A stretch of DNA of 64,000 bases, taken from the IMG/VR virus record IMGVR_UViG_3300033752_000251; one strand, written 5' to 3'. Origin of the DNA: an uncultured virus (IMG/VR IMGVR_UViG_3300033752_000251) (taxonomy: Duplodnaviria > Heunggongvirae > Uroviricota > Caudoviricetes). Position numbers and translations under genes: made by a program. Below the pieces are notes generated by a model, which made no database searches, was not told the DNA's origin, and was given only the letters and a program-made list of their open reading frames with translations. This document shows positions 2,174-26,029 of the stretch, piece after piece (the first letter of the stretch is position 1; each line of letters starts with the position of its first letter).

Positions 2174-2199
2174 TCCTATTATTTTGAAGGGAGAAAAAA

Positions 2200-2631: not shown

Positions 2632-2651
2632 ACATAGGAGGATATAGTACA

Positions 2652-4031: not shown

Positions 4032-4079
4032 AATGATGATGAGAAGTAGAGAAAACTCTACTTCTCATCATCATTTTTT
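4030..4079. terminator. long perfect hairpin terminator
   Basis: about 21-bp inverted repeat with AAAA loop and T-run. Confidence 0.8.
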
Positions 4080-4135
4080 CAATTAATTTTTACAGGTACA
4101 ATATGGTAAAAAATAAAAACTATGGGTGGTAAGAC

Positions 4136-4357
4136 ATGATGGAAGCTACTGAAGAGAAAATCCTTTCAATTAATACAGAGCCTGGCTACATCGTTATTGG
4201 AATTGGCAATATTAATTTGAAATTACCTGCAACCGGTACATTGGAAGATATGCATAATACGGCCAAATTATTTATCGAAGAACTGTTTTCTGTCAATGGT
4301 GTGAAGGAAGTTCTGGATAAATATGGTGTTATTATTGAAGAAAAAGTAATTAATTAA
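4136..4357 (+). CDS. hypothetical protein
   Basis: 73-aa ORF with SD-like GGTGG. Confidence 0.6.
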   Translation: MMEATEEKILSINTEPGYIVIGIGNINLKLPATGTLEDMHNTAKLFIEELFSVNGVKEVLDKYGVIIEEKVIN

Positions 4358-4381
4358 TTAATAAATAAGGAGCCGATTTAT

Positions 4382-5101
4382 ATGCAGCCACAATATGCCT
4401 CACTTAAATTCTTTCTTGACGGTTTTAAGCCAGCAATTATATTCAAGAATAATGAGAAAGAATTTGTTAACAGTTTAAGAGAGAAAGGCTTTCCTTTTAT
4501 CAAGTTGGATAGGGGATTCATGATCTTTTTTCAAACTCGTGATATGATGATCGAGTTTGAAAATAAGATGAGAGAAGGTCGAAAGAAAGGTAGAGCTTTC
4601 GATATGAATATGGCAATAGGAGAAGCCTTAGGGCTTCCTCCTAGTGCGGCAGAATTGTTTGCAAAGGGAGAGGGACAAAACTGGCTCGTTATAAACTTTT
4701 ATGGGTTAGTGTTTAATACCAGAGAGGAATTGGTTGAAGAAAATCTCAGGTGGTTGAAAAAGCGTTATAAAGTACCCAAAGATTATCCTGGCACGATTGA
4801 GGTTATTGATAAACGTGAGACGGTTTATACGCTTAGTCTTAAGGATATCAATAACTTCAAAATAATTCCCGGAACTAATTTGTTTGGTAATAAAATGGCC
4901 CCAATCTTTCAAGTTACAATTATGCCCAATCTCGTAATGACCACGGTGTACAACGGTGTTGATTCAGAAAAGGCACTTAAAGCATTTAATCGTCATAAGA
5001 AAGAAAAACCCCAGTTGGATGTTTGGGTAGCAGATAAATTACATTCTTCATTTAATCTTAACAGCATAAAAGAATTCAAAGATAAATTTAATAATAATTA
5101 A
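4382..5101 (+). CDS. hypothetical protein
   Basis: 239-aa ORF, AAGGAG SD. Confidence 0.75.
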   Translation: MQPQYASLKFFLDGFKPAIIFKNNEKEFVNSLREKGFPFIKLDRGFMIFFQTRDMMIEFENKMREGRKKGRAFDMNMAIGEALGLPPSAAELFAKGEGQNWLVINFYGLVFNTREELVEENLRWLKKRYKVPKDYPGTIEVIDKRETVYTLSLKDINNFKIIPGTNLFGNKMAPIFQVTIMPNLVMTTVYNGVDSEKALKAFNRHKKEKPQLDVWVADKLHSSFNLNSIKEFKDKFNNN

Positions 5102-5121
5102 CTATTTTTAATGAAGGGAAG

Positions 5122-5649
5122 ATGATAAACATGGCAAACATGTATAAAATCTATGCCCTTTACTCCAAGACGAGGAAAGTTTGCTATCTTCATGATCAGA
5201 GCCACAATGAGTTCTGGTCCCTGTATCTCAGATTCAAATATCCCAATGACAAGTGGTTTGTGATCGATACGGATTCGATTGTCTATATCGATCTGATGCA
5301 AAATAAAGAAGAAAGAGAACGCACAAAATTTATTAATCTTTACGATGACAAAGATTTTTATGCATTCAGGATCAAGAAGCAGATACTGGATGCACGTGAT
5401 ATGATGGCAAAAGAGTTCCTCAAAACAAAAATGGATGTTAAAGCAAACGATCTCTTCCTTGTCTTCAGATCTTCGCGTGGTGAGGCTGTTGTTTTATATA
5501 ATGGCCCGGATATCGATAGTGCTTTCGATATCTATGAAAGTAGAACCGGATGCGAAGGTGTTGAGTTTTGGAGAGATGGAAAGTTTATGGATACCCTGTA
5601 TACTAAAGATGACTATTATAGAAAATATCAAGCACAAAAAACTTCATAA
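5122..5649 (+). CDS. hypothetical protein
   Basis: 175-aa ORF; C-terminal YNG.D...W..K module resembles that of the previous gene. Confidence 0.7.
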   Translation: MINMANMYKIYALYSKTRKVCYLHDQSHNEFWSLYLRFKYPNDKWFVIDTDSIVYIDLMQNKEERERTKFINLYDDKDFYAFRIKKQILDARDMMAKEFLKTKMDVKANDLFLVFRSSRGEAVVLYNGPDIDSAFDIYESRTGCEGVEFWRDGKFMDTLYTKDDYYRKYQAQKTS

Positions 5650-5698
5650 ATAATAAAAAAATTATATAATTTTTTTATTATTTATGGAACTATTTAGT

Positions 5699-5937
5699 AA
5701 CCAGGACGGTCACCGGGTGTTTCGGCGGATGGCCGAGCGAAGCCCTCATGCGGTATTGCGGCACTTCCCGGAGCTGTCTGGGTTAGCGGGGATCGGTCGC
5801 TGCCCTGCGACCCGCTTTCCTGACGGCTATTTTTGCTGCGACCTCGTGCGCATAGACGGGCGCGATGGACGGTTTCCGGTGGCCGCCTGGTCGATTAAAA
5901 CTTTGATCACTAACGTTGAAGCGTTAGTGATTTTTTT
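5699..5937 (+). ncRNA. putative structured non-coding RNA (about 190-nt rod plus terminator)
   Basis: GC-rich island; 5' ACCAGG-A-CGGTCACCGG pairs with 3' CCGGTGGCCG-CCTGGT; nested helices with G-U pairs on + strand; AACT-N6-TA motif at 5688-5699; terminator 5906-5937. Confidence 0.75.
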
Positions 5938-6024
5938 AGTGTTTTTTTGTAAATTTAGTTTATAAAAATATATATTATAAACGTGAATATCAATAATAAA
6001 TAAATTCTTAGGAGGAAAATCTTC

Positions 6025-6585
6025 ATGGGAATTATTAAAATTGAAAAACCTATTTATTATAAAGATCGTTTTAAGGGAGCTTTTATACTCATTGAATATA
6101 ATGATGAGAATGGAATATTCGTTCTCGAAGAATTGCAAAGCCATCGCAGAGAAAATTTAGATTCTATCTTCTATGGTGGCATTCATGTTAACAAAACGTT
6201 CGATACAACTTCGACCCAACGAGAAGAAATTTTCAGATATTTGTATTCAATCGGTGTTAGGGCTATAGCTAGAGTCCCATTCAATCTCGCTATAGAACTA
6301 TTGTATTATAAAGCCGAAAAAGTCCAAAATCTTATCAGGCGGCTGAAAGAAATTGAAACAGATGATAATATCGTCTCCAAAGCCAATCTCATCGAAGATC
6401 CTGATGGTGAATTGAATGACTTATGCTGCGAAGCAATTTTCACTTATCAGGGATTGGCTCATCCTAAAGCTTTACAGACGCTGGAAGAGGCTGGATTTGA
6501 AGTGGTCATCATGAAAAAGGATCACTTTGGTATGCGTATTGGAGGCATTATGACAGAGAAAGGTATCGTTCAATTCTTTAAATAA
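6025..6585 (+). CDS. hypothetical protein
   Basis: AGGAGG SD, early motif at 5969. Confidence 0.75.
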   Translation: MGIIKIEKPIYYKDRFKGAFILIEYNDENGIFVLEELQSHRRENLDSIFYGGIHVNKTFDTTSTQREEIFRYLYSIGVRAIARVPFNLAIELLYYKAEKVQNLIRRLKEIETDDNIVSKANLIEDPDGELNDLCCEAIFTYQGLAHPKALQTLEEAGFEVVIMKKDHFGMRIGGIMTEKGIVQFFK

Positions 6586-6666
6586 GATAAACAAACCTTA
6601 CCTGATGGGTAAGGTTTGTTTTTTTCTTTTAACTCACAAAAACAATATTTAAAAGGAGTGATCGAA

Positions 6667-7893
6667 ATGGAGATAGCGGTAGCTCACATGTCACTTGCTC
6701 ATACATTCGGCAATATGACCGCTTTTATAACGGAATATATTAAAAAATTATTTCCTAAGAACTATTTCAATACGGTGAACATATCCTCGACAGCAGCGTT
6801 TAGATATTTCAATATTTTCGATAACACCAATAAAGAATTTATTAAGAGAAGAAAACCAATGCTTATTGTAAGACCTAGAATTGAATCTAATGATGATGCT
6901 TTTCTTGCAGGAACCCTCCTTACATCTAGAATAACCGATAATTATATTGACTTGGATTATGGAAACCTGCAACCATTCTTTGAAGATAAAGACAATAATA
7001 CTCATATTAAATTCTTAATGAATCGTATGAGAATGAATTTTGATTGTACAATTATAGTTGAACAGCAAATGGAACAAATTAATCAATATTTTTATTTGAA
7101 AAACGTGATAAGGCATGAGCATCCATTCTATATAAATACATTTCTCGAAAGTAACATCCATAGAAATTTGATCAAAGGTGTGGCATGTGTTGCCGGAATA
7201 GATAGAGATGATATTAAATCCATTTTGGACTATTTCAATAAATGCTCTTTATATCCTCTTACCTATAAGATGAAGAATTCTACAGGAAATGATGAGTTTT
7301 TCAGATATTATCCTGCTACAGTCGATGCTATGTTCACCGGTCTTTCTATGGATGATGGATCTAAGAGGGGATTTGTTGCCGACTCCTATGCAATTAATTT
7401 CACCGTTACCACTGAATTCAATACATCCGGTTTGTATTATTTCTTTACTGAAAGAAAGGATATTATTGAGCAAATTGAATTCGATATTGAGAACGACAAT
7501 AAGATCATTCCCATTTTCACTATAAATAATCTTTACAATCTAGTCGAACCTCCTGCGGGGTGGGAGCTCTATATTGCACCACTATTTAAGGTTTCGACAA
7601 ATAGAACTCCCGACACGTTGGATGTTTCACATTTAATCAATGATGGAATTAAGAATTGCATTAAATATTATCTTAAACAAGGTATTTCTATGGATTCACT
7701 TATAAAAGTTTTTGTTTTCAAAGATAATGATGTTCTTGATAATGAAACCGACTACAGTTTTGATTACGAAAATCTCATCCTTACTGTAAATAAGACTAAC
7801 ACAGTGTCTACCTATAGGATGTTGATGTATATTAATCTTTTCCTTATCAATGATTTAATTGCCAGGATTCACAAGATCGACGAAGAAAAATAA
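6667..7893 (+). CDS. hypothetical protein, possibly virion structural
   Basis: long ORF; likely start at ATG 6667 after AAGGAG. Confidence 0.65.
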   Translation: MEIAVAHMSLAHTFGNMTAFITEYIKKLFPKNYFNTVNISSTAAFRYFNIFDNTNKEFIKRRKPMLIVRPRIESNDDAFLAGTLLTSRITDNYIDLDYGNLQPFFEDKDNNTHIKFLMNRMRMNFDCTIIVEQQMEQINQYFYLKNVIRHEHPFYINTFLESNIHRNLIKGVACVAGIDRDDIKSILDYFNKCSLYPLTYKMKNSTGNDEFFRYYPATVDAMFTGLSMDDGSKRGFVADSYAINFTVTTEFNTSGLYYFFTERKDIIEQIEFDIENDNKIIPIFTINNLYNLVEPPAGWELYIAPLFKVSTNRTPDTLDVSHLINDGIKNCIKYYLKQGISMDSLIKVFVFKDNDVLDNETDYSFDYENLILTVNKTNTVSTYRMLMYINLFLINDLIARIHKIDEEK

Positions 7894-9266: not shown

Positions 9267-11396
9267 ATGACTAACAATCTTAGTGATCTCTTCGACGTTG
9301 AAAGAGATAGGATTAGGTCAAAGTTTAATAATCCAGGATTCTATATGAATCGTGAATTGAGTTGGATGGAGTTCAATAAAAGGGTTCTCCATCAAACTAT
9401 GAGAACTGAGGTTCCTCTTTTGGAGAGACTTAAGTTCTTGGGTATCACGGAATCGAACCTGGATGAGTTTATTATGGTTAGATTTTCATCTATCCTTAAT
9501 AAACTCAGATTGGGGTATACAGAAACGGATATTGCTGGTCTTCTCCCGGAGCAAGAATATGAACTCTTGCTCCGGGAAATTATTTCTTTCAAAGAAATCC
9601 AGCAAGAAAGCTTTGAAAAACTGAGAAAGAAACTGCGTAAAAACAATTTCACGATTTGTAAGTTCAAGCATCTCAGTGAAAAGGAAGTTGATTATGTAAG
9701 AAAGCTTTTCGAAAGAAACATTTATCCGTTGCTGACCCCGATCACCTTTGACTCAACCAAAGAATTTCCCCTTATTAAATCTAAGCAGCTATGCATAATA
9801 GCTTCTCTAGGGGACAAGAAAAATCCAAATCTGAATGTAATGTCCATCATCCCACTCCATGGTCTTGATCGTTTGTACAAGATTGAGACTGACGAGAGCG
9901 ATGAAGAACGATATATCTTGTTGGAGGATATTATCTTTAATTTTCTCCACAAGGTATTTATCAACAAGAGTATCATCTATAGGGGATGTATGAGAATCAT
10001 TCGTGAGGCGGATATTGAAATTGAGGGAAGACGGGATATTTATATTGTCGACCGAATGAGGGAAACTCTCATTAAACGGGAGTTTAGTAAACCCATCTTC
10101 ATGGATATCGACAGTGATGTTCCTAAGGAAACCCTCAAACTTCTGACCAAAATCTTCGACATTGACAAGAGGCAAGTGTTTAAATGTGAAAACATCGTAG
10201 ACATGTCGTTTCTCTTAAGTAAGCCGATAAGAAATGCGGCTTACGAGTACGACCCGTTCAACCCTCAGTATCCAGAAGATCTGATCGGCGAGCACGATAT
10301 GTTTACTGCTATCGACAACGGCGATCTCATTCTTCATCACCCTTACGAGTCGTTCACACCGGTTATCAAATTCCTCGAACATGCGGCCGAGGATAATGAT
10401 GTCTTGGCAATCAAATTGACTCTGTATAGAGTATCTTCTGCGGAGTCCCCGATTGTCGAGGCGTTGTGTAGGGCTGCTGAAAGAGGAAAGCAGGTAAGTG
10501 TTCTTCTCGAAATTAAAGCAAGGTTTGATGAGAATAGAAATATGTCGTTGATAGAAAAACTAAAAGTATCCGGCTGTAAATTGATCTATGGTATTGAGGA
10601 GTTGAAAACACATTGTAAATTTATATTGGTTGTGAGGAAAGGAAAGAAAAATCTCAAAACGTATTGCCATATCGGTACAGGAAATTACAACGACAAGACT
10701 GCGTCAATCTATACCGATATTTCCTACTTCACATCCAGCAGCAAAATAGCGGATGACCTGTTGACGATATTTAATGTCTTGTCAGGTTTCTCCGATCCCA
10801 GAGACGAAGTGAGCAAAATTTTCTATGCTCCGTACAATCTGAGATTGAGATTGTATCAGCTTATCGATCGAGAGATCGAGAATGCTCAAAAGGGTAGACA
10901 AGCTTTCATTACGTTGAAGCTTAACTCCCTTTCTGATCTGGGTATTATCAAGAAGCTGTATGAGGCCTCTGAGCAGGGTGTCAAGATATCCATTATCTGT
11001 AGAGGTATATGCTCGATGAAGAAAATCAATTCGAACATCAGCATCAAGAGTGTTGTTGGTAGATTTCTAGAGCATAGTAGAATTTACTTCTTCTACAATA
11101 ATGGAAAGTCAGATATTTTCATTTCAAGTGCTGATATGTTGACGCGGAATTTGGACAGACGGGTTGAACTTCTGGTTCCGATTACGGACGAAAATTCCAG
11201 AAATAAACTCTTGTCTATTTTGAAAATGTATTTCCGCGACACATTCAACACCTACATTCTCAATAAAGACAATCAGTACGAACTTTTGAAAAGTCCTGTT
11301 CCATTCAATGTCCAAGAGTATTTTATGGAGCAGGCTGTCAAGAGTTTCAAATTACGCAGTATGCCGATTATGTCTCTGAAGAGCAAGAGGAAATAA
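9267..11396 (+). CDS. ppk1: polyphosphate kinase 1
   Basis: NRELSWMEFNKRVL, SNLDEFIMVR, LHHPYESF, EIKARFDE, KTHCK, HIGTGNYN, GRFLEHSRI, SSADMLTRNLDRRVE. Confidence 0.95.
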   Translation: MTNNLSDLFDVERDRIRSKFNNPGFYMNRELSWMEFNKRVLHQTMRTEVPLLERLKFLGITESNLDEFIMVRFSSILNKLRLGYTETDIAGLLPEQEYELLLREIISFKEIQQESFEKLRKKLRKNNFTICKFKHLSEKEVDYVRKLFERNIYPLLTPITFDSTKEFPLIKSKQLCIIASLGDKKNPNLNVMSIIPLHGLDRLYKIETDESDEERYILLEDIIFNFLHKVFINKSIIYRGCMRIIREADIEIEGRRDIYIVDRMRETLIKREFSKPIFMDIDSDVPKETLKLLTKIFDIDKRQVFKCENIVDMSFLLSKPIRNAAYEYDPFNPQYPEDLIGEHDMFTAIDNGDLILHHPYESFTPVIKFLEHAAEDNDVLAIKLTLYRVSSAESPIVEALCRAAERGKQVSVLLEIKARFDENRNMSLIEKLKVSGCKLIYGIEELKTHCKFILVVRKGKKNLKTYCHIGTGNYNDKTASIYTDISYFTSSSKIADDLLTIFNVLSGFSDPRDEVSKIFYAPYNLRLRLYQLIDREIENAQKGRQAFITLKLNSLSDLGIIKKLYEASEQGVKISIICRGICSMKKINSNISIKSVVGRFLEHSRIYFFYNNGKSDIFISSADMLTRNLDRRVELLVPITDENSRNKLLSILKMYFRDTFNTYILNKDNQYELLKSPVPFNVQEYFMEQAVKSFKLRSMPIMSLKSKRK

Positions 11397-11472
11397 CACC
11401 TCTTGCTCTTTATTTTTTTGTGAAAAAAGCAGTAAAAACGCTGCAAGGATAGTTCCTTGCAGCGTTTGTTTA

Positions 11473-11604
11473 TTACTCCTCAGACTGTTCCTGCGGAGGA
11501 TTGATCTGGCTACGATAATTCTCTGGAATTTCGTTGTACTGAATTTTACCCTTTTCCAGCATCCACTTGTAAAGATTAAGCTTTCTTTGATCAATTCCGC
11601 TCAT
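11473..11604 (-). CDS. small XkdX/CD1375-like tail-associated protein (43 aa, not in ORF track)
   Basis: MSGIDQRKLNLYKWMLEKGKIQYNEIPENYRSQ...; GAGGTG SD; follows chaperone-like gene. Confidence 0.6.
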   Translation of the reverse strand: MSGIDQRKLNLYKWMLEKGKIQYNEIPENYRSQINPPQEQSEE

Positions 11605-11605
11605 A

Positions 11606-11905
11606 TTACAACACCTCGTTTTCTAATAATAAGCTTGTAGCATCGTCAAGAAGCTGGTTCAGACGTTGAATTTCGAGATCTTTTTCTTGTTCCGGAGTCA
11701 AAGGAGCATCAACAATCTCAAAGCTGAACTCCTTTGTCTGTGGATTAAAATACATCTCAGGTCGCTTCCCGATTTCAACCTCTGGCCATTCGGGTACTGA
11801 TGGAACCGAATACCAATTGTCGTTCGGTGGAGTGTTCGTTGTATAAGTTATCGACCTCACCCGGATTTTATCAGGGGCGATTTGTTCACCACTTACGATT
11901 GGCAT
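11606..11905 (-). CDS. putative tail fibre assembly chaperone (XkdW-like)
   Basis: PE.EIGKRPEMYFNPQTKEFSFE..D.PLTPEQ plus coiled-coil tail, typical of Firmicute phage fibre chaperones. Confidence 0.55.
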   Translation of the reverse strand: MPIVSGEQIAPDKIRVRSITYTTNTPPNDNWYSVPSVPEWPEVEIGKRPEMYFNPQTKEFSFEIVDAPLTPEQEKDLEIQRLNQLLDDATSLLLENEVL

Positions 11906-11982
11906 AAATGTATACCTCCCATTTAGATTTTAATAGATGTTTTTTTATAATTTATTTATTAAAATGTAGATGTAGTATTTTT

Positions 11983-14106
11983 TTACCACACAAGTTCGTA
12001 TTCGACATCTCTATATTTTATAATAATAGGATTTTGTGATGAAAAAGTTCCTCCTGCTTTTAATAGGGTAAAATAAGGAGAATCGCTATGTCCCACTGCT
12101 ATATATTGACCATCGGGAGAGAATGATACACCATAGCTAGTACCAGGTAATGTATAATTACTAGCTAGTTCTACATTATCTCCATTTCTTTTTAATAGAG
12201 TAAAACAAGGAGAACCCCAATGTCCTACAGCTATATATTGACCATCGGGAGAGAATGATACATCTTCGGCATTACCAGGTAATGTATAAGTACTAGCTAA
12301 TTCTACATTATCTCCATTTCTTTTTAATAGAGTAAAATAAGGAGAACCAAAATGTCCCACTGCTATATATTGACCATCGGGAGAGAATGATACACCATAG
12401 CTAGTACCAGGTAATGTATAAGTACTAGCTAATTCTACATTATCTCCATTTCTTTTTAGTAAAGTAAAATAAGGAAAACCATTATATCCTACAGCTATAT
12501 ATTGACCATCGGGAGAAAATGATACACCCAAGCCATTACTAGGTAATGTATAATTACTAGCTAGTTCTACATTATCTCCATTTCTTTTTAATAGAGTAAA
12601 ATAAGGAGAACCATGATGTCCTACAGCTATATATTGACCATCGGGAGAGAATGATACACCATAGCCACCGTCAGATAATGTATAAGTACTAGCTAATTCT
12701 ACATTATCTCCATTTCTTTTTAGTAAAGTAAAATAAGGAGAACCATAATGTGCTACAGCTATATATTTGCCATCGGGAGAGAATGATATACCTTCGGCAC
12801 CACCAGGTAATGTATAAGTACTAGCTAGTTCTACATTATCTCCATTTCTTTTTAGTAAAGTAAAATAAGGAGAACTATTATGTTCTACAGCTATATATTG
12901 ACCATCGGGAGAGAATGATACATCCAAGCTAGTAAAAGGTAATGTATAAGTACTAGCTAGTAATACTTTTTCATAATTATTCTTATAAACTAATTCTTTT
13001 ACATCTCTAAATATCTTATTACCTTTAACCTCTTCTAACTGACCATCAATTTCTTTAATAACATTTACTTTAGTTTTAATTTCGATGGCTTCTTGTACTC
13101 CATTTCTTTTTAATAGAGTAAAATAAGGAGGAGAATTAATATATCCTACAGCTATATATTGACCATCGGGAGAGAATGATACATCCATGGCGACACTAGG
13201 TAATGTATAAGTACTAGCTAGTTCTACATTATCTCCATTTCTTTTTAGTAAAGTAAAATAAGGAGAACCATAATGTGCTACAGCTATATATCGACCATCG
13301 GGAGAGAATGATACACCCAAGCCAGTACTAGGTAATGTATAAGTACTAGCTAGTTCTACATTATCTCCATTTCTTTTTAATAGAGTAAAATGAGGAGAAA
13401 CATAATGTGCTACAGCTATATATTGACCATCAGGAGAGAATGATGCATCAAAGCTATCACTAGGTAATGTATAAGTACTAGCTAGTTCTACATTATCTCC
13501 ATTTCTTTTTAGTAAAGTAAAACGAGGAGAACCAGCATGTGCTACAGCTATATATTGACCATCGGGAGAGAATGAGACAGAACGTCCAGTAGCGGATAAT
13601 GTATAAGTACTAGCTAGTTCTACATTATCTCCATTTCTTTTTAATAGAGTAAAATAAGGAGAACCATTATGTCCCACAGCTATATATTGACCATCGGGAG
13701 AGAATGCCGTACCATATCCAACATCAGGTAATGTATATTTAGTAGCTAGTTCTACATTATCTCCATTTCTTTTTAGTAAAGTAAAACCAGGAGAACCGCT
13801 ATGTCCTATAGCTATATATTGACCATCGGGAGAGAATGAGATAGAGCGTCCAGTATCGGATAATGTATAAGTACTAGCTAATTCTACATTATCTCCATTT
13901 CTTTTTAGTAAAGTAAAACGAGGAGAACCAACATGTCCTACAGCTATATATTGACCATCGGGAGAGAATGAAACACTATAGCCATAGTTAGGCAATTTAT
14001 ATGAACTAGCCGGCTCCACATTGTCATCTGTAGCAATAAATTTATTATTTAGAATATTTACTGAAACGCCTTGTCGTAGCAATTCGTGAAAATAAAGCTC
14101 TTCCAA
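11983..14106 (-). CDS. double 7-bladed WD40-like beta-propeller protein (14 x 44-aa repeats), putative receptor-binding protein
   Basis: 14 repeats of NVELASTYTLPxxxxxVSFSPDGQYIAVGHxxSPYFTLLKRNGD in two blocks of 7. Confidence 0.88.
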   Translation of the reverse strand: MEELYFHELLRQGVSVNILNNKFIATDDNVEPASSYKLPNYGYSVSFSPDGQYIAVGHVGSPRFTLLKRNGDNVELASTYTLSDTGRSISFSPDGQYIAIGHSGSPGFTLLKRNGDNVELATKYTLPDVGYGTAFSPDGQYIAVGHNGSPYFTLLKRNGDNVELASTYTLSATGRSVSFSPDGQYIAVAHAGSPRFTLLKRNGDNVELASTYTLPSDSFDASFSPDGQYIAVAHYVSPHFTLLKRNGDNVELASTYTLPSTGLGVSFSPDGRYIAVAHYGSPYFTLLKRNGDNVELASTYTLPSVAMDVSFSPDGQYIAVGYINSPPYFTLLKRNGVQEAIEIKTKVNVIKEIDGQLEEVKGNKIFRDVKELVYKNNYEKVLLASTYTLPFTSLDVSFSPDGQYIAVEHNSSPYFTLLKRNGDNVELASTYTLPGGAEGISFSPDGKYIAVAHYGSPYFTLLKRNGDNVELASTYTLSDGGYGVSFSPDGQYIAVGHHGSPYFTLLKRNGDNVELASNYTLPSNGLGVSFSPDGQYIAVGYNGFPYFTLLKRNGDNVELASTYTLPGTSYGVSFSPDGQYIAVGHFGSPYFTLLKRNGDNVELASTYTLPGNAEDVSFSPDGQYIAVGHWGSPCFTLLKRNGDNVELASNYTLPGTSYGVSFSPDGQYIAVGHSDSPYFTLLKAGGTFSSQNPIIIKYRDVEYELVW

Positions 14107-14123
14107 ATTACTTACCTCCTTTA

Positions 14124-14423
14124 TTAAGATTTTTCCCTAACTCTATATTTTCTCCCTCTACATTCGACAATAGTTGGGAAGGGGTTTGATTTAAATATAT
14201 CACTAGCCTTTAATAAGGTGAAAAGCGTGTCACGAACCGTGAATAAATTGACCAAAGGGGGAAATGACACATCATATACAATATATGATGAAATATATGA
14301 TCTTATAAGATTTAGTCCATCATCAGTATAATTGAATTTATTTTTTTTTAGTATTTTTGCTGAAGCATGTCTTTTTATTATTTCATGTAAATATAAATCT
14401 TTTATTTTAAATCCCCATATCAA
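14124..14423 (-). CDS. collapsed paralog of the propeller genes (N- and C-terminal caps with one degenerate blade); possible pseudogene
   Basis: LYLHEI..NKF..TDD...YDVSFPP...FTLLKA...IVECRGRKY matches the termini of both neighbours. Confidence 0.6.
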   Translation of the reverse strand: MIWGFKIKDLYLHEIIKRHASAKILKKNKFNYTDDGLNLIRSYISSYIVYDVSFPPLVNLFTVRDTLFTLLKASDIFKSNPFPTIVECRGRKYRVREKS

Positions 14424-16558
14424 TTAATTGTACGCATCTTATATCTTTTACCTCTATATTCAATAAAGATTGGAGGGGTTTTTGAAAAAGTTCCTCCTGC
14501 TTTTAGTAAAGTAAAATAAGGAGAACCATTATGTCCTACAGCTATATATTGACCATCAGGAGAGAATGATACACTATAGCCATCACCAGGTAATGTATAA
14601 GTACTAGCTAATTCTACATTATCTCCATTTCTTTTTAGTAAAGTAAAATAAGGAGAACCATTATGTGCTACAGCTATATATTGACCATCGGGAGAGAATG
14701 GGGCAGAGTATCCAATATTAGGTAATGTATAATTACTAGCTAATTCTACAGTATCCCCATTTCTTTTTAATAGAGTAAAATAAGGAGAACCATAATATCC
14801 TACAGCTATATATTGACCATCGGGAGAGAATGATACATTTTCGGTAGCACCAGGTAATGTATAAGTACTAGCTAGTTCTACAGTATCTCCATTTCTTTTT
14901 AATAGAGTAAAATAAGGAGAACCATAATGTCCTACAGCTATATATTGACCATCGGGAGAGAATGATACTCTCAAGCCAATATCAGGTAATGTATAATTAC
15001 TAGCTAGTTCTACATTATCTCCATTTCTTTTTAGTAAAGTAAAATGAGGAGAACCCCAATGTGCTACAGCTATATATTGACCATCGGGAGAGAATAATAC
15101 ACCATGGCCATAACTAGGTAATGTATAAGTACTAGCTAGTTCTACATTATCTCCATTTCTTTTTAATAGAGTAAAATAAGGAGAACCATAATATGCTACA
15201 GCTATATATTTACCATCAGGAGAGAATGATACACCTCCAGCATTACCAGTTAATGTATAATTACTAGCTAATTCTACATTATCTCCATTTCTTTTTAGTA
15301 AAGTAAAATAAGGAGAATCATAATGTCCTACAGCTATATATTGACCATCGGGAGAAAATGATACACCCGTGGCGATATTGGGTAATGTATAAGTATCAGC
15401 TAGTAGTACTTTTTCATAATTATTCTTATAAACTAATTCTTTTACATCTCTAAATATCTTATTACTTTTAACCTCTTTTAACTGACCATCAATTTCTTTA
15501 ATAACATTTACTTTAGTTTTAATTTCGATGGCTTCTTGTACTCCATTTCTTTTTAATAGAGTAAAATAAGGAGAACTAAAATGTCCTACAGCTATATATT
15601 GACCATCGGGAGAGAATGATACACCCGTGCCATTGCCAGGTAATGTATAAGTACTAGCTAATTCTACATTATCTCCATTTCTTTTTAGTAAAGTAAAATA
15701 AGGAGAACCATAATATCCTACAGCTATATATTGACCATCGGGAGAGAATGATACACCAAAGCCATAGTTAGATAGTGTATAAGTACTAGCTAATTCTACA
15801 TTATCTCCATTTCTTTTTAGTAAAGTAAAATAAGGAGAACCATTATGTGCTACAGCTATATATTGACCATCAGGAGAGAATGATACACCTAAGCCATCAC
15901 TAGGTAATGTATAAGTACTAGCTAGTTCTACAGTATCTCCATTTCTTTTTAATAGAGTAAAATAAGGAGAAGCATAATGCCCTACAGCTATATATTGACC
16001 ATCGGGAGAGAATGAGACAGAACGTCCAATACCAGGTAATATATAATTACTAGCTAATTCTACATTATCTCCATTTCTTTTTAGTAAAGTAAAACGAGGA
16101 GAAAGATCATATCCTACAGCTATATATTGACCATCAGGAGAGAATGATACAGAGTTTCCATTGCCAGGTAATGTATAAGTACTAGCTAATTCTACATTAT
16201 CTCCATTTCTTTTTAGTAAAGTAAAATTAGGAGAAGCAGTATGTGCTACAGCTATATATTGACCATCGGGAGAGAATGATACACCATAGCCAGTACTAGG
16301 TAATATATAATTACTAGCTAGTTTTACATTATCTCCATTTCTTTTTAATAGAGTAAAATAAGGAGAACCACTATGTCCTACAGCTATATATTGACCATCG
16401 GGAGAGAATGAGACAGAGCGTCCAGTATTAGGTAAATTATATGAACTAGCCAGCTCCACATTGTCATCTGTAGCAATAAATTCATTATTTAGCACCTCTA
16501 CAGAATCAATTTTTTTCCCAATTAACCCATGATAAATTAAATCGTTCACTTCTTTCAC
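14420..16558 (-). CDS. second double beta-propeller protein (14 x 44-aa repeats)
   Basis: same repeat unit and near-identical inter-propeller linker GVQEAIEIKTKVNVIKEIDGQL. Confidence 0.88.
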   Translation of the reverse strand: MKEVNDLIYHGLIGKKIDSVEVLNNEFIATDDNVELASSYNLPNTGRSVSFSPDGQYIAVGHSGSPYFTLLKRNGDNVKLASNYILPSTGYGVSFSPDGQYIAVAHTASPNFTLLKRNGDNVELASTYTLPGNGNSVSFSPDGQYIAVGYDLSPRFTLLKRNGDNVELASNYILPGIGRSVSFSPDGQYIAVGHYASPYFTLLKRNGDTVELASTYTLPSDGLGVSFSPDGQYIAVAHNGSPYFTLLKRNGDNVELASTYTLSNYGFGVSFSPDGQYIAVGYYGSPYFTLLKRNGDNVELASTYTLPGNGTGVSFSPDGQYIAVGHFSSPYFTLLKRNGVQEAIEIKTKVNVIKEIDGQLKEVKSNKIFRDVKELVYKNNYEKVLLADTYTLPNIATGVSFSPDGQYIAVGHYDSPYFTLLKRNGDNVELASNYTLTGNAGGVSFSPDGKYIAVAYYGSPYFTLLKRNGDNVELASTYTLPSYGHGVLFSPDGQYIAVAHWGSPHFTLLKRNGDNVELASNYTLPDIGLRVSFSPDGQYIAVGHYGSPYFTLLKRNGDTVELASTYTLPGATENVSFSPDGQYIAVGYYGSPYFTLLKRNGDTVELASNYTLPNIGYSAPFSPDGQYIAVAHNGSPYFTLLKRNGDNVELASTYTLPGDGYSVSFSPDGQYIAVGHNGSPYFTLLKAGGTFSKTPPIFIEYRGKRYKMRTIN

Positions 16559-16840
16559 CCCAATTTTTTATTAATCTATAATTTTACTCACAAACTCAAT
16601 TACAATTTGAGTTCCCGAGATTTGAGATCTCACAATTTTTTGGTTATGATGAAATAGAATTAATCATATGACATTTAAGGATATTTTTTATCTTATTATG
16701 TATCTGTTTTTGTCACGAAATTCTTATTTTTATTAATCTCTATTAACGATGGAAAAATAACTGTAATTAGGATGATATTTTTGAAGTGAATTTCAATGTA
16801 AAAAAATAAAGGATAAGGTTAAATACCTTATCCCTTATTT

Positions 16841-17590
16841 TTATTCTTCTCGCAGGAAATCTCCATCCTCATCATAAATTAAGGTTCTTGTGACTGTTTT
16901 TGTCACAGTCATACCGTCTTCTGCATAGAAGGTTATGGTTCTTGTTGTATAATTCGGAGACGACCCACCGCTAAGTTCGGTTTTTCGTGCTAATGTATTA
17001 TTTGGTCTGTAATATTCAACGATCGTGAAAATTCCATTCTCGTCTTTACCTGACCTAGAAGGAATTTCAATAATCTTCTGTTCCATCAACAGATCAGCAT
17101 ACTCTTTTGATCTGTTTTCAACTTCATCTGCAATAGCCTGGGCTTGAACAGCAATCGCCTGAGATGTTCTCTCAGGAGTCATATACTTATTACTTGCAGT
17201 TCCCTCTTCGGCTTCAGTTTTAGATGCAATGCCATAGTTCTCAACGTTTCCGAGACCTACATCTCCCTTTACGAGAGTCACTGCACCCGTCTTACCAGCA
17301 ACCGACTTCACAGGCGACAAAGCTGCAATTGCCTGGGAAGTTCTTTGTGGTGTCATGTACTTGTTACTTGCAGTTCCGGCTTCGGCTTCAGTTTTAGATG
17401 CAATACCATAGTTTTCAACATTACCAAGACCTACATCACTTTTATCAGTTCCATGTGGATTTTTAGCATCAATATGCTCTTGTACACTAAGACCGTTTGA
17501 ATCTATAATATTGGACGCTTTAGTAATTGGATGAAGCTCAACCCATCCGACACCAGGTACGTATTGTTTCTGTAGTATATTTTTTGCCAT
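16841..17590 (-). CDS. tail fibre-like protein with internal DVGLGNVENYGIASKTEAE duplication
   Basis: NPHGTDKSDVGLGNVEN and SVAGKTGAVTL fibre repeats. Confidence 0.75.
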   Translation of the reverse strand: MAKNILQKQYVPGVGWVELHPITKASNIIDSNGLSVQEHIDAKNPHGTDKSDVGLGNVENYGIASKTEAEAGTASNKYMTPQRTSQAIAALSPVKSVAGKTGAVTLVKGDVGLGNVENYGIASKTEAEEGTASNKYMTPERTSQAIAVQAQAIADEVENRSKEYADLLMEQKIIEIPSRSGKDENGIFTIVEYYRPNNTLARKTELSGGSSPNYTTRTITFYAEDGMTVTKTVTRTLIYDEDGDFLREE

Positions 17591-17807: not shown

Positions 17808-18485
17808 TTAAATTTCCTGATACCAGAAATCAGCATTTGTAGGTTCAGTACCAGAAACCACAATAGATGCAAGGTTAACAGGTTTACCATCTACTTCATT
17901 CCAATTAACATAACCCCAGGAAAGGCTTCCAGCAGTAGCCCCTGCTTTCAGCACTTTATTGTTGTTGCTGGTTCCAGTTGGAGGCACATGGAGATTACCA
18001 TCGCCAGTCGGATGTACGTACTTATTGGCGCCAGCTTCGATTCCATCGAGTTTTGCTTTATCAGCGGACGACATCAAGCCGTTATTGCTGGTAGTAGCTA
18101 CCGTTTTGTCTGCTTTTGCATTCCATGCAGCTTTTTCTGCATCAGTTACAAAACGGTGAGTCGAATCTTGAGTGATATCCGAAGCGACATGTTGATGCTC
18201 TTTAGGAGCAGCAAACGCATCAATTGCTTGCTTAACTCTCGCAGGGGTCATGTATTTATTATTTGCTGTTCCGGCTTCAGCATCAGCTTGAGAAGCGATA
18301 CCGTAGTTTTCAACATTATCAAGACCAACGTCACCTTTAACCAGTGTAACTGCACCGGTTTTACCTGCAACAGATTGTACAGGGGAAGTCGGAGTCAAAA
18401 GTCCGTTGCCATAAGTGACGGAATACCAGTTGTTATCCGCCGGAGTTGAACGAATCGTCCAGTTTATACCATCGGGAGAAGTCAT
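17808..18485 (-). CDS. orphaned C-terminal part of tail fibre fused to a short TSPDGINWT-repeat fragment
   Basis: shares the 75-bp repeat with 18886..21039; GLMSSADKAKLDGIEAGANKYVHP fibre motifs. Confidence 0.7.
   Translation of the reverse strand: MTSPDGINWTIRSTPADNNWYSVTYGNGLLTPTSPVQSVAGKTGAVTLVKGDVGLDNVENYGIASQADAEAGTANNKYMTPARVKQAIDAFAAPKEHQHVASDITQDSTHRFVTDAEKAAWNAKADKTVATTSNNGLMSSADKAKLDGIEAGANKYVHPTGDGNLHVPPTGTSNNNKVLKAGATAGSLSWGYVNWNEVDGKPVNLASIVVSGTEPTNADFWYQEI
18328..18402. repeat. 75-bp perfect direct repeat, copy 1
   Basis: identical to 20360-20434; encodes LLTPTSPVQSVAGKTGAVTLVKGDV on - strand. Confidence 0.92.
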
Positions 18486-20359
18486 GACGCGATTCCTACG
18501 CCGTACTCTCCAAGGCTCGTAAAGTCCATCGGAACTTTTCCACCCCTTCCAGCGACGGTAACGTAATCGTACTTTACGAGTACTTTAACACTATTATCGT
18601 ATAAAATTTCCCTTTTGTCACTACGAAGTCAACAAAAAGACCCCGCATTAAGCAGGGTCTAATTACACGTCTCTGCGCCTAATTAGGGTGTGTACGGCTC
18701 GCTCGTAATCTGCTCATATTCTTCTGCCGTCATAGCGTCTAATTGTACCACACTGTGCAGATTATGAGGCCCCGCCTATTCGGCGGAGCCTTACGCTTCA
18801 TAATCAAATCCGGTGATTTGTTTATATTGCTCGGCTTGGCCGCCGATGCGATCTGTATAATGAGTCCTCTCTCGTCATCACGATTTCACTCCCATGAAAC
18901 ATACCGTAAACCCGCTGTAAAGCTATTGGTGCTGATATTGGTAAACAACGCTTTAGGACTTGCTGTGGACGGGTTACCAATCTGTAGTTGAATACGGCCA
19001 GTGCTACTATTATAAATGGCGCTGATTTGTATTTCTGCATTAACGGTCGGGTCGACAATGTACAAACCATAGCCGAAGATTAGGTTTGTCGGATATCCGA
19101 TCGTGATGCTGTTAAACGGGTCTCCTTTATATTCAATGTTCCCGATTGTGAACGTAACGGGTATTTGGAACGACCCCAAAAAGTTTGTCTTGGGCGGCGT
19201 GTAATTCGCATAATAGATAATCGACGTAACATTGTTACCGGAGCCGGATCGGTTAAATGTCAGGGTTGTACTACCTACGGAAATCGGCGCATACGTACCG
19301 GTTATTCCGAACAGCGTAACCCCAGACTTGATATTGGCAGCATTAAAATTAGCGTCGTCCGTATAGACCCTTACAGTCCCGTCATGGTATCCTGCTTCCG
19401 GTGTCACATACAGACGCCCAGTTTGGCCTGTACGCGGTGCGCCATAATCATTTGTTTTGACTGGCATCGTGCCGGTTACCTTCGAGCCGTTAACATACGC
19501 CGTCCGGCCAGACAAGATTTGTGCGGCTGTTGCGGTTGCGTCGCTTGTGAATGTTCCAGATACGCCGCCGACCGTCGTACCAGCCTTGATATTGGCCGCC
19601 GTCAAGTTGGTGATATTGGCCGTGACTGTGCCGCTGCCATTGTGATAACCTGCCGGGATTGTGTACGACGCCCCCTGCGTGGTCAAGGTTTGACTGACGG
19701 CTCCATTGTTGATCATGCTGCCGGTTACCTTCGAGCCGTTAACATACGCCGTCCGGCCAGACAAGATTTGACCAGCCGTGGCTGTCGCGTCGCTAGTGAA
19801 CGTACCATCAACGCCGCCTACCGTCGCACCGGCTCGGATATTTCCTGCGGACAGATTCACGATGTCGGTCGTGACCGTGCCGGTGCCGTCGTGGTATCCC
19901 TCCGGGATCGTGTATTCTTCGCCTTGTGATGTCAGCGTTTGGGAAACCGATCCGTTATTGGGCATCGTGCCGGTGCGCTTTACTCCGCCCTGATAAAACG
20001 TCTTACCGGTCAAAACATCCCCAACAGCCGCGTTCGCGTCCTTGGAGATGTCCCGAATTTTGCTTGACAACTGCGCAAACGTGTCGCCTCCTGAAGCAGA
20101 CTGTCCCATGTCAGTGATGGCGGAAGCGATCTGATTTTTCCCATCACTGACAGATTGAAAAAGTTCATCCATTCCATCCCGGACGTTGGTAGAAGTGAAA
20201 TTCGGTGAACTAAGCGAAACTTCCGAAGCATCCGGCGCGGGTGCAAGTGCAGCAATCGCCTGCGCTGTTTTAAGCGGCGTCATGTACGCGGTATCGGACG
20301 TTCCGGCTTCTGCTTCTTCCTGTGTTGCTATTCCATAGTTTTGGACGTTTCCGAGTCCC
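18403..20359 (-). mobile_element. GC-rich captured prophage tail-fibre cassette
   Basis: sharp GC increase bounded by the direct repeat; contains fibre C-terminus, two XkdX-like remnants, terminators and a sigmaA-like promoter. Confidence 0.7.
18683..18835 (-). pseudogene. two tandem XkdX-like C-terminal remnants
   Basis: AEQYKQITGFDYEA* (ends 18791) and VVQLDAMTAEEYEQITSEPYTP* (ends 18683), each followed by a hairpin. Confidence 0.65.
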
Positions 20360-21039
20360 ACGTCACCTTTAACCAGTGTAACTGCACCGGTTTTACCTGC
20401 AACAGATTGTACAGGGGAAGTCGGAGTCAAAAGTTCTTGCCAGTTGCCAACTACGGATGCAGGTTCTGCTCTCAAAATGAATGTTTTGTTGATATCCGAT
20501 CGTACCGCGATATCACCAACTTCCGCAGTAAGACCCAGCATTTCTCCTTCGCTTCCGACAACGAAAGTATCCGAAATAGCAATTGCAGGAAGGACATTAA
20601 CATCAAGTTTACCATTGCTATCCAATACAGGCACATTACCAGCAGAAGTACCGATATCTCTGGAAGCTGCTGTACCTGCATCGGAAATCTTACTAAGAGC
20701 CAATGTAGGAATATCTGCAGATGTCAGAGCACCCCATGTTGCGGTTCCTGACGAACCGCCATATTTAAGTACCTGGTTAGGCGCACCGCCAGAAGGAATA
20801 TGTTTATTACCAGCACTAGTTGGATGAACGTATTTGTTGGCTCCTTCCTCAATGCCCGCAAGTTTATTCTTTTCTTCTGTAGTATAATCTTCAGTAGAAA
20901 GACCTTTACCTTCTTCTTTATCAACCTTTCCGGCAAGTTGCTCATCAAGACCTTCTACTAATTCCGCTTTTGTTTTTGGGTATAAATTATCCCATTCACT
21001 ACCATTCTTGTGACGAATCTGAATGTTTTTACTGCTCAT
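18886..21039 (-). CDS. tail fibre protein (mosaic: AT-rich N-terminus, GC-rich C-terminus)
   Basis: KVDKEEGKGLSTEDYT, GANKYVHP and repeated SDATATAxQILSGRTAYVNGSKVTG motifs. Confidence 0.85.
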   Translation of the reverse strand: MSSKNIQIRHKNGSEWDNLYPKTKAELVEGLDEQLAGKVDKEEGKGLSTEDYTTEEKNKLAGIEEGANKYVHPTSAGNKHIPSGGAPNQVLKYGGSSGTATWGALTSADIPTLALSKISDAGTAASRDIGTSAGNVPVLDSNGKLDVNVLPAIAISDTFVVGSEGEMLGLTAEVGDIAVRSDINKTFILRAEPASVVGNWQELLTPTSPVQSVAGKTGAVTLVKGDVGLGNVQNYGIATQEEAEAGTSDTAYMTPLKTAQAIAALAPAPDASEVSLSSPNFTSTNVRDGMDELFQSVSDGKNQIASAITDMGQSASGGDTFAQLSSKIRDISKDANAAVGDVLTGKTFYQGGVKRTGTMPNNGSVSQTLTSQGEEYTIPEGYHDGTGTVTTDIVNLSAGNIRAGATVGGVDGTFTSDATATAGQILSGRTAYVNGSKVTGSMINNGAVSQTLTTQGASYTIPAGYHNGSGTVTANITNLTAANIKAGTTVGGVSGTFTSDATATAAQILSGRTAYVNGSKVTGTMPVKTNDYGAPRTGQTGRLYVTPEAGYHDGTVRVYTDDANFNAANIKSGVTLFGITGTYAPISVGSTTLTFNRSGSGNNVTSIIYYANYTPPKTNFLGSFQIPVTFTIGNIEYKGDPFNSITIGYPTNLIFGYGLYIVDPTVNAEIQISAIYNSSTGRIQLQIGNPSTASPKALFTNISTNSFTAGLRYVSWE
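20360..20434. repeat. 75-bp perfect direct repeat, copy 2
   Basis: identical to 18328-18402. Confidence 0.92.
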
Positions 21040-25003: not shown

Positions 25004-26029
25004 TTATTTTTTAGTATCAATAAGTCTCGAAACAACCACAGCAAGTTCTTCGCGTTTCACGGTATTGCCGAGACCGAAACGGCCGTCGGGATAACCCTCC
25101 ATGATACCAGCAGCACTTACAACGTCAATAGAAGTTTTTGCCCAGTGATTGTCGGGGACATCCGTGAATTTGGTGGGTTTACCCATGTTAATCACCTTAA
25201 CCTTTCTACTAGTGATCAAATTGCAGATGACAACTGCCAGTTGTTCACGGGTCACATCTTCACCAATACCGAAGCGCCCGTCAGTGAAACCATTAATAAT
25301 ACTTTCATCCGAAACCAGTTTGATAGCGTTTACTGCCCAATGACCTTTGGGGACGTCAATGAACTTGACACTCGGATCTTTTTCAAAAGGTTTCGTAGGT
25401 GCAGATGCAGGAGGTTTACTAAAAGGAATACCAAGATACTCACAAGCAGCACGAACTGCAGCTTCAGCACAGAGATCACGAAATTCCTCACTTTTAAGAT
25501 AAGCAAGATCTTCAAGGTTTGTCATAAATGCATGTTCAATAAGGATTGCAGGAATACCGTAGGAAGCGGGAACACGACACATGTGGAAGTTTGCCCACGA
25601 ATTAGGAGAACAAGCTACGGTATTTCTGTCGTTATTGGGAAGAAGTTTGTCAGCCCACTTATCCCAAATTTCAGCTAACTTTTTGGCTTTGGTATCAGCG
25701 TGCCAGTAGAAGACCCAGTGACCTTTAGCATTTGCGTTACCGCTGGCATCAGCGTGAATACTGAACAAGAGGTCAACTTTCTCAGATTTAGCTTTATTGG
25801 TGCGAGTCGTTAGATTATCTTTAGATTTACCAGCAAGAGCTTCATGTGTTAACACCGGTTCAATACCATTATATTTGCCAAGTTCGGCAGCTTTCTTAGC
25901 TACTGCAAGATTGAACCAATGTTCTTCAAATTTTTCACCATTGACAATAACGCCTTTTCCACCTTCCACCTCGAAGGTATCTTCAAGATGTCCGGCATCC
26001 CAAGCAACTTTTGCTTTATAATTTGCCAA
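25004..26029 (-). CDS. endolysin: N-acetylmuramoyl-L-alanine amidase (Amidase_3) with SLH domains
   Basis: DAGH, E..FNL, SIHAD, PAILIEHAFMTN; SLH repeats FIDVPKGHWA..INGFTDGRFG..VTREQLA. Confidence 0.92.
   Translation of the reverse strand: MANYKAKVAWDAGHLEDTFEVEGGKGVIVNGEKFEEHWFNLAVAKKAAELGKYNGIEPVLTHEALAGKSKDNLTTRTNKAKSEKVDLLFSIHADASGNANAKGHWVFYWHADTKAKKLAEIWDKWADKLLPNNDRNTVACSPNSWANFHMCRVPASYGIPAILIEHAFMTNLEDLAYLKSEEFRDLCAEAAVRAACEYLGIPFSKPPASAPTKPFEKDPSVKFIDVPKGHWAVNAIKLVSDESIINGFTDGRFGIGEDVTREQLAVVICNLITSRKVKVINMGKPTKFTDVPDNHWAKTSIDVVSAAGIMEGYPDGRFGLGNTVKREELAVVVSRLIDTKK

Follow-up and report, generated by a model that had tools for sequence, protein, structure and literature searches.

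Two neighbouring genes in a 64,000-nt stretch of DNA from an uncultured virus (IMG/VR record IMGVR_UViG_3300033752_000251, Caudoviricetes; the whole stretch is called the window below) encode proteins made almost entirely of tandem beta-propeller blades. The blades are nearly identical to one another apart from a few codons, and the locus poses the question of what a bacteriophage would do with such proteins, and how their variation is generated. An earlier note, made from the sequence alone, saw in the arrays a system in which blade exchange provides an antibody-like repertoire of adhesins for host recognition. Our own reading, to which we give a probability of about 0.6, is that the genes encode tail-associated host-binding proteins subject to concerted evolution, whose loop codons (columns 12-16, 31-32 and 35 of the blade) diverge under diversifying selection. 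The process would be evolutionary, and not a programmed generator of a repertoire. The locus is compared below with a second assembly of the same phage (G001) and with two further jumbo phages (G002 and G003).

RESULTS

The repeat and its variable columns

Gene 1 (protein P0001) and gene 2 (P0002) each contain 14 blades of 44 aa (132 bp), located with the SPDG motif as anchor, and both arrays are recovered by Tandem Repeats Finder (Table 1); the earlier description of two paralogous genes with 2 x 7 near-identical 132-bp blades is thus borne out. Starting at the N-terminus, gene 1 encodes a 26-aa peptide, propeller A (blades 1-7), a linker of ~42 aa, propeller B (blades 8-14) and a C-terminal tail of ~25 aa. 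The SPDG motifs are always spaced by 44 aa, except for one step of 86-87 aa that corresponds to the 42-aa linker between blades 7 and 8. Taking both proteins together the N-terminal peptide comprises ~26-32 aa and the C-terminal tail ~25 aa, and the proteins consist of propellers plus terminal peptides of about 25-30 aa. No NACHT or NB-ARC NTPase and no effector family is matched by either in Pfam at E up to 0.01. The TTG start of gene 1 has a strong Shine-Dalgarno sequence (AAGGAGGT) 7 nt upstream. Gene 2 probably begins at its second GTG (16549, giving 709 aa), 9 nt inside the mechanical call. This codon has a GGGGTGA motif upstream and yields an N-terminus MNDL..., compared with MNEL... in the orthologue of G002.

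The blade consensus is NVELASTYTLPGTGYGVSFSPDGQYIAVGHYGSPYFTLLKRNGD. Among the 28 blades of the two genes 14 of the 44 columns are invariant, and columns 7, 29 and 30 are dimorphic. The entropy peaks at columns 12-16, directly following TYTLP, at columns 31-32, following AVGH, and at column 35. The first two stretches are the five and two codons singled out in the earlier note, to which column 35 is now added, and the loop peptides quoted there are all present: GTSYG twice (gene 1 blades 12 and 14), GNAED, SNGLG, FTSLD, DIGLR, and xTGRS/GIGRS in both genes. In nucleotide terms, pairs of blades are on average 0.44 apart in loop 1 and 0.22 in loop 2, compared with 0.07-0.11 in the three scaffold segments. 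The scaffold DNA is near-identical between blades, synonymous positions included. The most variable columns comprise 25% Tyr, 14% Asn, 10% Gly and 10% Ser, a composition that resembles that of binding-site loops.

The variable loops lie on one face of a predicted double propeller

P0001 and P0002 match the Pfam families PF00400 WD40 (101.5 and 112 bits; cut-off 27) and PF07676 PD40 (133 and 141 bits; cut-off 20.9), as well as lactonase-type propeller families above their cut-offs. An AlphaFold2 model of P0002, built from a 10-sequence alignment, has a mean predicted local distance difference test score (pLDDT) of 84. It comprises two seven-bladed propellers (residues 33-339 and 379-689), in which most 10-residue blocks exceed 90; the regions of low confidence are the N-terminus (1-30), the linker (340-378) and the C-terminus (690-712). 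The best match among solved structures is PDB 2YMU, the 'highly repetitive propeller' (Foldseek E 2e-35, 34% identity; phmmer E 3.1e-85), after which the designed WRAP-T propellers rank. Structure matches in BFVD include propeller proteins from many uncultured and jumbo phages. The predicted fold is a double propeller of the WD40/WRAP type. The blade consensus lacks the WD dipeptide at the end of strand C and the GH/WD signature is absent, though this is not obligatory in the superfamily.

In the model the strands of each blade occupy columns 2-9 (D), 14-19 (A), 25-30 (B) and 35-42 (C). This puts the variable columns 12-16 in the turn from D to A and columns 31-35 in that from B to C, while the invariant SPDG (A-B) and NGD (C-D) turns are on the opposite side. 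Since the turns of a four-stranded antiparallel meander alternate between faces, the D-A and B-C loops share one face. Both variable stretches are therefore placed on the same face of the modelled propeller, as a structural check of the earlier note's proposal would have it; this assignment derives from the modelled secondary structure and the topology of the beta-meander, and not from solvent exposure in the coordinates. The D-A/B-C face of WD40 proteins is the 'top' face usually used for ligand binding, and the variable face is presumably the binding face.

The loop codons evolve faster than the scaffold

Rates were estimated by Nei-Gojobori counting, which is crude for codons with multiple hits, and the ratios given here do not come from a recombination-aware model. 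For all pairs of the 28 blades the proportions of nonsynonymous and synonymous differences (pN and pS) are 0.47 and 0.27 in the hypervariable codons, with a ratio of nonsynonymous to synonymous divergence (dN/dS) of 2.2. The corresponding values for scaffold codons are 0.062, 0.15 and 0.39. Closely similar ratios are obtained when the gene 2 blades of the window are compared with those at the same position in G002 (hypervariable: dN 0.588, dS 0.277, ratio 2.1; scaffold: dN 0.041, dS 0.128, ratio 0.32). The dN of the loops (0.59-0.73) is four- to six-fold the synonymous divergence of the scaffold (0.11-0.17), an excess not explicable by relaxed constraint alone. The selection check suggested by the earlier note thus comes out in its favour, with dN well above dS in the hypervariable codons of the 28 units. 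The four most repetitive of the related proteins found in the protein search, which are independent of one another (P0005, P0012, P0014 and P0019; blade identity 0.69-0.77), each have their own scaffold consensus, and their most variable columns are again ~11-16 and 29-32.

The small open reading frame (ORF) between the two genes, P0003, comprises the N-terminal peptide, one decayed blade without SPDG and the C-terminal tail. It aligns with both ends of P0002 (BLASTP E 5e-5 for the N-terminus plus blade 1, and 6e-8 for blade 14 plus the C-terminus), as expected for a paralogue that has collapsed to a single decayed blade. No Shine-Dalgarno sequence is visible upstream of it, and so it is probably a remnant of repeat collapse; a genuine single-blade protein is the less likely alternative.

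P0003 shows that such arrays decay, and recently amplified, highly repetitive propellers are said to arise continuously in all lineages, including a few viral ones (PMC9218822). Both would fit a neutral by-product, in which the amplification of the blades would be very recent and the loop codons, under relaxed selection, free of constraint. We consider this improbable. It does not account for a loop dN four- to six-fold above the synonymous divergence of the scaffold, nor for variability at the same columns in independent lineages that have other scaffolds, nor for residue usage biased to Tyr, Asn, Ser and Gly. Shared polymorphisms at intermediate frequency also argue against a single recent burst.

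Probable exchange of short tracts between blades

The Mantel correlation between the five segments of the blade is about 0 (r from -0.16 to 0.09 over 10 segment pairs). This test cannot distinguish a star-like burst from recombination, a value about 0 fitting both, and a four-gamete analysis was therefore added. It used 53 in-register blades from five genes in two phages, in which 13 common scaffold polymorphisms give 78 site pairs. All four gametes are present in 63 of these, with r2 about 0 even for synonymous sites tens of nucleotides apart. The only tightly linked pair is that of the adjacent nt 112/115 (r2 0.86). Identical loop-1 peptides recur more often than anticipated, with 8 pairs observed and 2.3 expected under column shuffles (P 0.0056), some of them at different blade positions of different genes. 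In gene 2 of G002 blades 11 and 12 share four rare scaffold markers yet differ in loop 1, and blades 1 and 2 are identical. Linkage equilibrium, uncorrelated segments and recurring loops together indicate frequent short-tract exchange between blades, by gene conversion or unequal crossing-over.

The order of the blades is nevertheless largely the same in both paralogues, with markers kept at their positions (the unusual blade 1 codons, KVLLA in blade 8, Lys at column 24 in blade 9 and KAGGT in blade 14), so that the shuffling of whole blades is not the main mode. Mosaic conversion plus point substitution appears to fit the polymorphism data better than 'blade shuffling'. Of the blade exchange proposed earlier, the reshuffling of scaffold polymorphisms therefore stands and the shuffling of intact blades does not.

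The Leu-Leu codons 38-39 are coupled. The combinations TTA CTA and CTA TTA are about equally common, while the other two are present in 2/53 and 0/53 blades (r2 0.86). This is a tightly linked synonymous dimorphism.

The same locus in other assemblies and phages

The window's own record (L003) is identical to the window (0/18136 nt differ), and the assembly G001 is identical over 4128/4128 nt, covering gene 2, the small ORF and the start of gene 1. The contig of the same phage in G001 (G001:C1) ends, at 162761, inside the gene 1 array; assemblers evidently struggle at this locus. G002 is a different jumbo phage (207 kb, 100% complete) with the same arrangement of three ORFs. Gene 1 differs from that of the window at 1/2124 nt and the small ORF at 0/300 nt. 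The two phages have in common a block (within L004 of G002) whose left breakpoint falls within the scaffold of gene 2 blade 14. On either side the phages can hardly be aligned. The 19.4 kb upstream contain just two matches of ~100-150 nt at 67-71% identity, and the 11.5 kb on the other side a single match at 66%, apart from the 93% tail of the block itself. With 4 mismatches over ~2.84 kb between flanks of this kind, sequence comparison indicates that the gene 1 block is a recent transfer between distinct phages. On the upstream side of the breakpoint gene 2 differs from its G002 orthologue. Loop 1 is identical at the same position in 0/14 blades, and there are 124 differences in 336 hypervariable nt compared with 89 in 1512 scaffold nt.

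With gene 1 only 1 nt apart in two phages, and the array identical in two assemblies, the diversity is evolutionary and does not arise within a lineage. The 'antibody-like repertoire' attributed to blade exchange is accordingly unsupported or overstated.

The same highly repetitive propeller is also present elsewhere in G002: one copy terminates a 1023-aa protein that has cadherin-like repeats, and another lies near the start of a 1685-aa LamG protein, where an N-terminal domain comes first. A 1646-aa protein has an old, diverged propeller beside a YadA-head-repeat fibre; the gene of that fibre seems to cross contig ends. A third jumbo phage, G003 (L005), is more distant. Following a LamG fibre protein it encodes a double propeller of 710 aa, a single propeller of 388 aa and a P0004-like gene, and its blades are more diverged. 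The number of blades is 14 in the three full genes, 7 in the 1023-aa and 1685-aa proteins of G002 and the 388-aa protein of L005, and 1 in P0003; no allelic series is seen. No near-identical phage DNA was found by megablast for 11 kb of the window among 50,697 phage records.

The sharp confinement of variation to a few codons might suggest programmed hypermutation or site-specific shuffling within the phage lineage, by a retroelement resembling the diversity-generating retroelements (DGRs), an invertase or a shufflon. Phage receptor-binding genes are classic DGR targets. However, RVT_1 is absent from G001, G002 and G003 (the last two 100% complete), control genomes being positive, and the 64-kb window has no reverse transcriptase, resolvase or integrase match in Pfam at the thresholds used. 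The letters that depart from the consensus are distributed by consensus base as G 62, T 59, A 55 and C 8, and are thus not adenine-specific. The repeats of both arrays are all direct, no candidate template repeat is found outside the arrays, and gene 1 is near-identical in the two phages. With no reverse transcriptase in the three records or in the 64-kb window, the part of this phage's own record that the search covered, and with no restriction to adenine, the system is not a DGR, and programmed diversification of any of these kinds is extremely improbable.

All of these sequences are metagenome assemblies, and the agreement of three of them reduces, but does not remove, the concern that short-read arrays have been collapsed or made chimeric, so that the number and order of blades and part of the diversity are unreal. 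WD40 arrays of Podospora with repeats of high internal conservation (HIC) could not be reconstructed from Illumina assemblies (PMC12222747). G001 breaks inside the array, and Logan contigs of three of four sequencing runs (X3, X8 and X11) join non-adjacent blades. On the other hand, the overlaps agree (0/4128 nt differing in G001, 0/18136 in L003 and 1/2124 for gene 1 in G002), three genes have unbroken reading frames with exactly 7 + 7 blades each, the modelled propellers are closed, and unique loops every 57-75 nt would anchor short reads. We regard an artefact of this kind as very improbable.

The sequencing-run data are Logan contigs (22 rows) and not raw reads, a form in which within-population variation is not reliably visible. 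For run X1 44 of 45 pieces have at least 99% identity to the window; X1 may be the source sample, and so is not independent. Runs X3, X8 and X11 contain variants of 90-99% identity and 6 joints of non-adjacent blades, the sides of which are only 21-40 nt. The variants include changed letters at the loop codons of gene 1 blade 5 (13450-13455). These contigs, which possibly derive from paralogues or other phages, are a weak hint of other blade arrangements and are not used as evidence.

Genetic context

The coordinates of the features are listed in Table 1. The three genes upstream of gene 2 match PHROG families annotated as tail protein, tail fiber and virion structural protein (best E 2e-32 to 6e-48), and the propeller genes are accordingly encoded, as judged by annotation, within the tail-fibre module. 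They are parted from the fibre genes by a terminator-like hairpin, in view of which they may form a transcription unit of their own. A promoter scan was uninformative, as the repeat yields dozens of identical consensus matches. In G002 the propeller locus follows the YadA-head-repeat fibre and the LamG/propeller giants.

Table 1. Coordinates of the propeller locus, its neighbours and related features. Positions are those of the window unless another contig is named.
Feature	Position	Strand	Remarks
Gene 1 (P0001)	11983..14106	-	707 aa; TTG start
Small ORF (P0003)	14124..14423	-	99 aa; between gene 1 and gene 2
Gene 2 (P0002)	14420..16558	-	712 aa as called; architecture as gene 1
Gene 1 132-bp tandem array	12058..13984	-	14.6 copies (Tandem Repeats Finder)
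Gene 2 132-bp tandem array	14501..16415	-	14.6 copies (Tandem Repeats Finder)
Block common to window and G002 (L004)	11663..14505	.	~2.84 kb, 4 mismatches
Terminator-like hairpin and T-run	16811..16833	minus-strand T-run	between 249-aa fibre gene and gene 2
Three tail-fibre-like genes upstream	16841-17590 (249 aa), 17808-18485 (225 aa), 18886-21039 (717 aa)	-	PHROG matches
P0004	11606..11905	-	99 aa; small gene after the propeller genes, conserved in all three phages
80-aa ORF	11352-11594	-	overlaps ppk 3' end and terminators; implausible sequence; not conserved in G002
Polyphosphate kinase 1 (ppk), full-length	9267-11396	+	four PPK domains, E 1e-66 to 1e-29
Endolysin, Amidase_3 + SLH domains	25004-26029	-	Pfam
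Split multisubunit RNA polymerase pieces (Rpb1 domain 2, Rpb2 domain 6), gyrase B + A etc.	727-2142, 54657-56933, 37756-43126	+	Pfam
Three propeller giants of G002 (1685, 1023, 1646 aa)	L019 (G002:C1) 10126-15183, 2027-6967; L006 5874-8945	-, -; +

The propeller genes are followed by P0004, whose only match in a named phage is to an unannotated gap between the tail fibre and holin genes of phage D6E. The earlier note placed the arrays between tail fibres and an XkdW/XkdX-like pair, the latter possibly P0004 and the 80-aa ORF. The tail-fibre side of this location agrees with the PHROG matches. The identification of the pair is rejected; neither ORF has a family hidden Markov model match in Pfam at E up to 0.01, nor a relevant one in NCBIfam at E up to 1, and the 80-aa ORF is unlikely to be a gene. 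The Atlas leads for P0004, all below the thresholds of the tool, are YomQ_N (0.91, 164 shared features) and the N-domain of a tail-fibre-assembly protein (template modelling score 0.43-0.53).

The window further encodes DnaB, an NAD-dependent ligase and ParA, and its gene set is that of a phiKZ/PBS1-style jumbo phage. The endolysin, with its Amidase_3 and S-layer homology (SLH) domains, points to a Firmicute-like host that has an S-layer or cell-wall polymers to which SLH domains anchor. The ppk gene is convergent with the tail-fibre string, and two strong terminator hairpins are located at 11377-11467.

Relatives and the likely role

Relatives with the same blade motif found in the protein search are fused to beta-helix (P0005), fn3 (P0007), He_PIG (P0012), LamG (P0014 and P0017) and discoidin (P0040) domains. 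The next relatives are generic cyanobacterial WD40 proteins that resemble NOD-like receptors (NLRs), with ~30% identity. Distant homologues of 25-35% identity are encoded by three isolated phages: in Salicola phage CGphi29 two genes after the tape measure, in Pseudomonas phage POR1 after a collagen-like protein, and in Xanthomonas phage XacN1 inside a giant ORF. A match to PHROG 24741, a 'virion structural protein', spans only about one blade. Judged by where the genes lie, by the fusion partners and by the confinement of hypervariability to one side, the most likely role would be binding to the host surface at the tail.

The closest cellular relatives are WD40 domains of immune sensors, and the main rival is therefore an intracellular role, in which free, sensor-like propellers would not be part of the virion. 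They might, for example, sequester host proteins or immune components as decoys or sponges, or else scaffold phage assemblies, and the variable face would track host proteins. The nearest solved and cellular relatives are indeed WRAP-type WD40 domains of cyanobacterial STAND/NLR-like proteins. P0001 and P0002 have neither a signal peptide nor a recognised fibre-attachment domain, and the terminator-like hairpin separates them from the upstream fibre genes. Yet the locus lies at the end of the string of tail-fibre genes and precedes P0004, with its D6E match between tail fibre and holin; fusions in cis join the same propeller to domains typical of fibres and adhesins (LamG, cadherin-like, beta-helix, fn3 and discoidin); and the distant homologues of isolated phages are within tail modules. 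Weighing these together we think the intracellular role unlikely.

DISCUSSION

The tail-associated host-binding protein proposed here would work in the following manner. Short-tract recombination between blades, paralogues and phages would keep the scaffold near-identical, synonymous sites included, and the residues of the D-A loop (columns 12-16) and the B-C loop (columns 31-32 and 35) would diverge fast under diversifying selection. Each propeller would then present a composite binding face of seven different loop sets that are rich in Tyr, Asn, Ser and Gly. The most likely role of the protein in the tail would be that of an accessory adhesin or receptor-binding module directed at host-surface structures that vary, and the conserved short peptides at its two ends would attach it to the fibre apparatus.

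A number of observations weigh against this interpretation. The dS within the hypervariable codons is itself raised (0.27-0.28), and it is over such multi-hit codons that Nei-Gojobori counting is crude. A Mantel r of about 0 is also expected from burst amplification, and the four-gamete result may be due in part to recurrent mutation at selected sites (for example T/N at column 7). Rapid turnover is not seen on the time scale of the two phages, between which gene 1 is unchanged. Short-read metagenome assemblies may get the order of blades wrong, as is indicated for comparable arrays (PMC12222747), and it is inside the array that the G001 contig breaks off. The closest cellular relatives are intracellular, namely the WD40 sensor domains of cyanobacterial STAND/NLR-like proteins, and the best PHROG match of the propellers (19311) has unknown function. 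Finally, the virion location of the propellers and the binding of a ligand are inferred.

The interpretation may be taken further. The blades could be interchangeable specificity cassettes, with the invariant scaffold serving as portable homology that moves loop segments among the 4 to 6 propellers of a genome and between unrelated co-infecting jumbo phages. The community as a whole would then hold a combinatorial pool of loops, a recombination-based counterpart of DGRs and of the HIC-repeat sensors of hosts, possibly tracking variable S-layer or cell-wall glycopolymers of an SLH-bearing host. This extension is speculative, and on balance doubtful.

The closest parallel in the behaviour of the repeats is with the fungal HNWD family of NLRs, and to this extent the comparison made in the earlier note holds (PMC12222747). 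According to that source, HNWD proteins have highly conserved WD40 repeats in which a few codons are under diversifying selection, maintained by unequal crossing-over and recombination. As in the Podospora proteins described there (het-e, het-d and nwd), the phage arrays comprise WD40-type blades in concerted evolution with a few hypervariable codons at what would be the interaction face. The fungal repeats are >80% identical and their domain has likewise been modelled as two seven-bladed propellers (PMC12222747). The combination that characterises HIC repeats, near-identical repeats with hypervariable codons under diversifying selection, is found in the phage blades. The phage proteins differ from HNWD in lacking the NACHT/NB-ARC NTPase and effector domain, in their location in a tail-fibre module, and in a 44-aa unit without WD/GH dipeptides. 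Moreover, the phage repeat number is 14 in all three full genes seen, whereas HNWD alleles are length-polymorphic (PMC12222747).

The WRAP protein of Nostoc punctiforme (2YMU) has the same blade motif (FSPDGQxIA...RNG) and also has 14 near-identical blades that form two propellers. WRAP is described as the sensor domain of a STAND ATPase, a cellular protein with a suggested part in innate immunity (PMC9218822). The phage domain, by contrast, is accompanied only by short terminal peptides, and differs far more from blade to blade in the two loops.

Mtd of Bordetella phage BPP-1 is reportedly a phage receptor-binding protein diversified by a DGR. The propellers resemble it in that variation is focused on a few codons, ligand-contacting in Mtd, of an otherwise constant scaffold in a protein of the tail module, if their putative tail role is accepted. 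Unlike Mtd, no reverse transcriptase, template repeat or adenine bias is found, and the diversity is spread in parallel across 28 blades. Diversity in the phage blades would come from ordinary mutation, recombination and selection, compared with mutagenic retrohoming for Mtd.

Propellers are also used in other tail fibres. Five-bladed propeller platforms are present in receptor-binding proteins of Staphylococcus phages. Lactonase-type and beta-propeller lectin domains have been catalogued in the fibres of extracellular contractile injection systems (PMC12923769). Propellers serve there as binding heads of contractile-tail fibres and, as far as these descriptions go, are not reported as highly repetitive arrays with hypervariable loops.

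Repetitive WD40 arrays with hypervariable residues on one face are known from NLR-type immune sensors of fungi and bacteria. No report of such arrays in phage tail modules was found in the full-text literature, the coverage of which misses most subscription journals.

If the interpretation is correct, the propellers would constitute a third route to the diversification of phage receptors, beside DGRs and the whole-domain mosaicism of fibres. The same evolutionary device would then operate on the side of the virus, as stand-alone double propellers that are elsewhere fused to fibre or adhesin domains and exchanged between unrelated jumbo phages. The 44-aa blade with its eight variable positions would be a naturally modular scaffold, which could be used to study or to engineer binding specificity.

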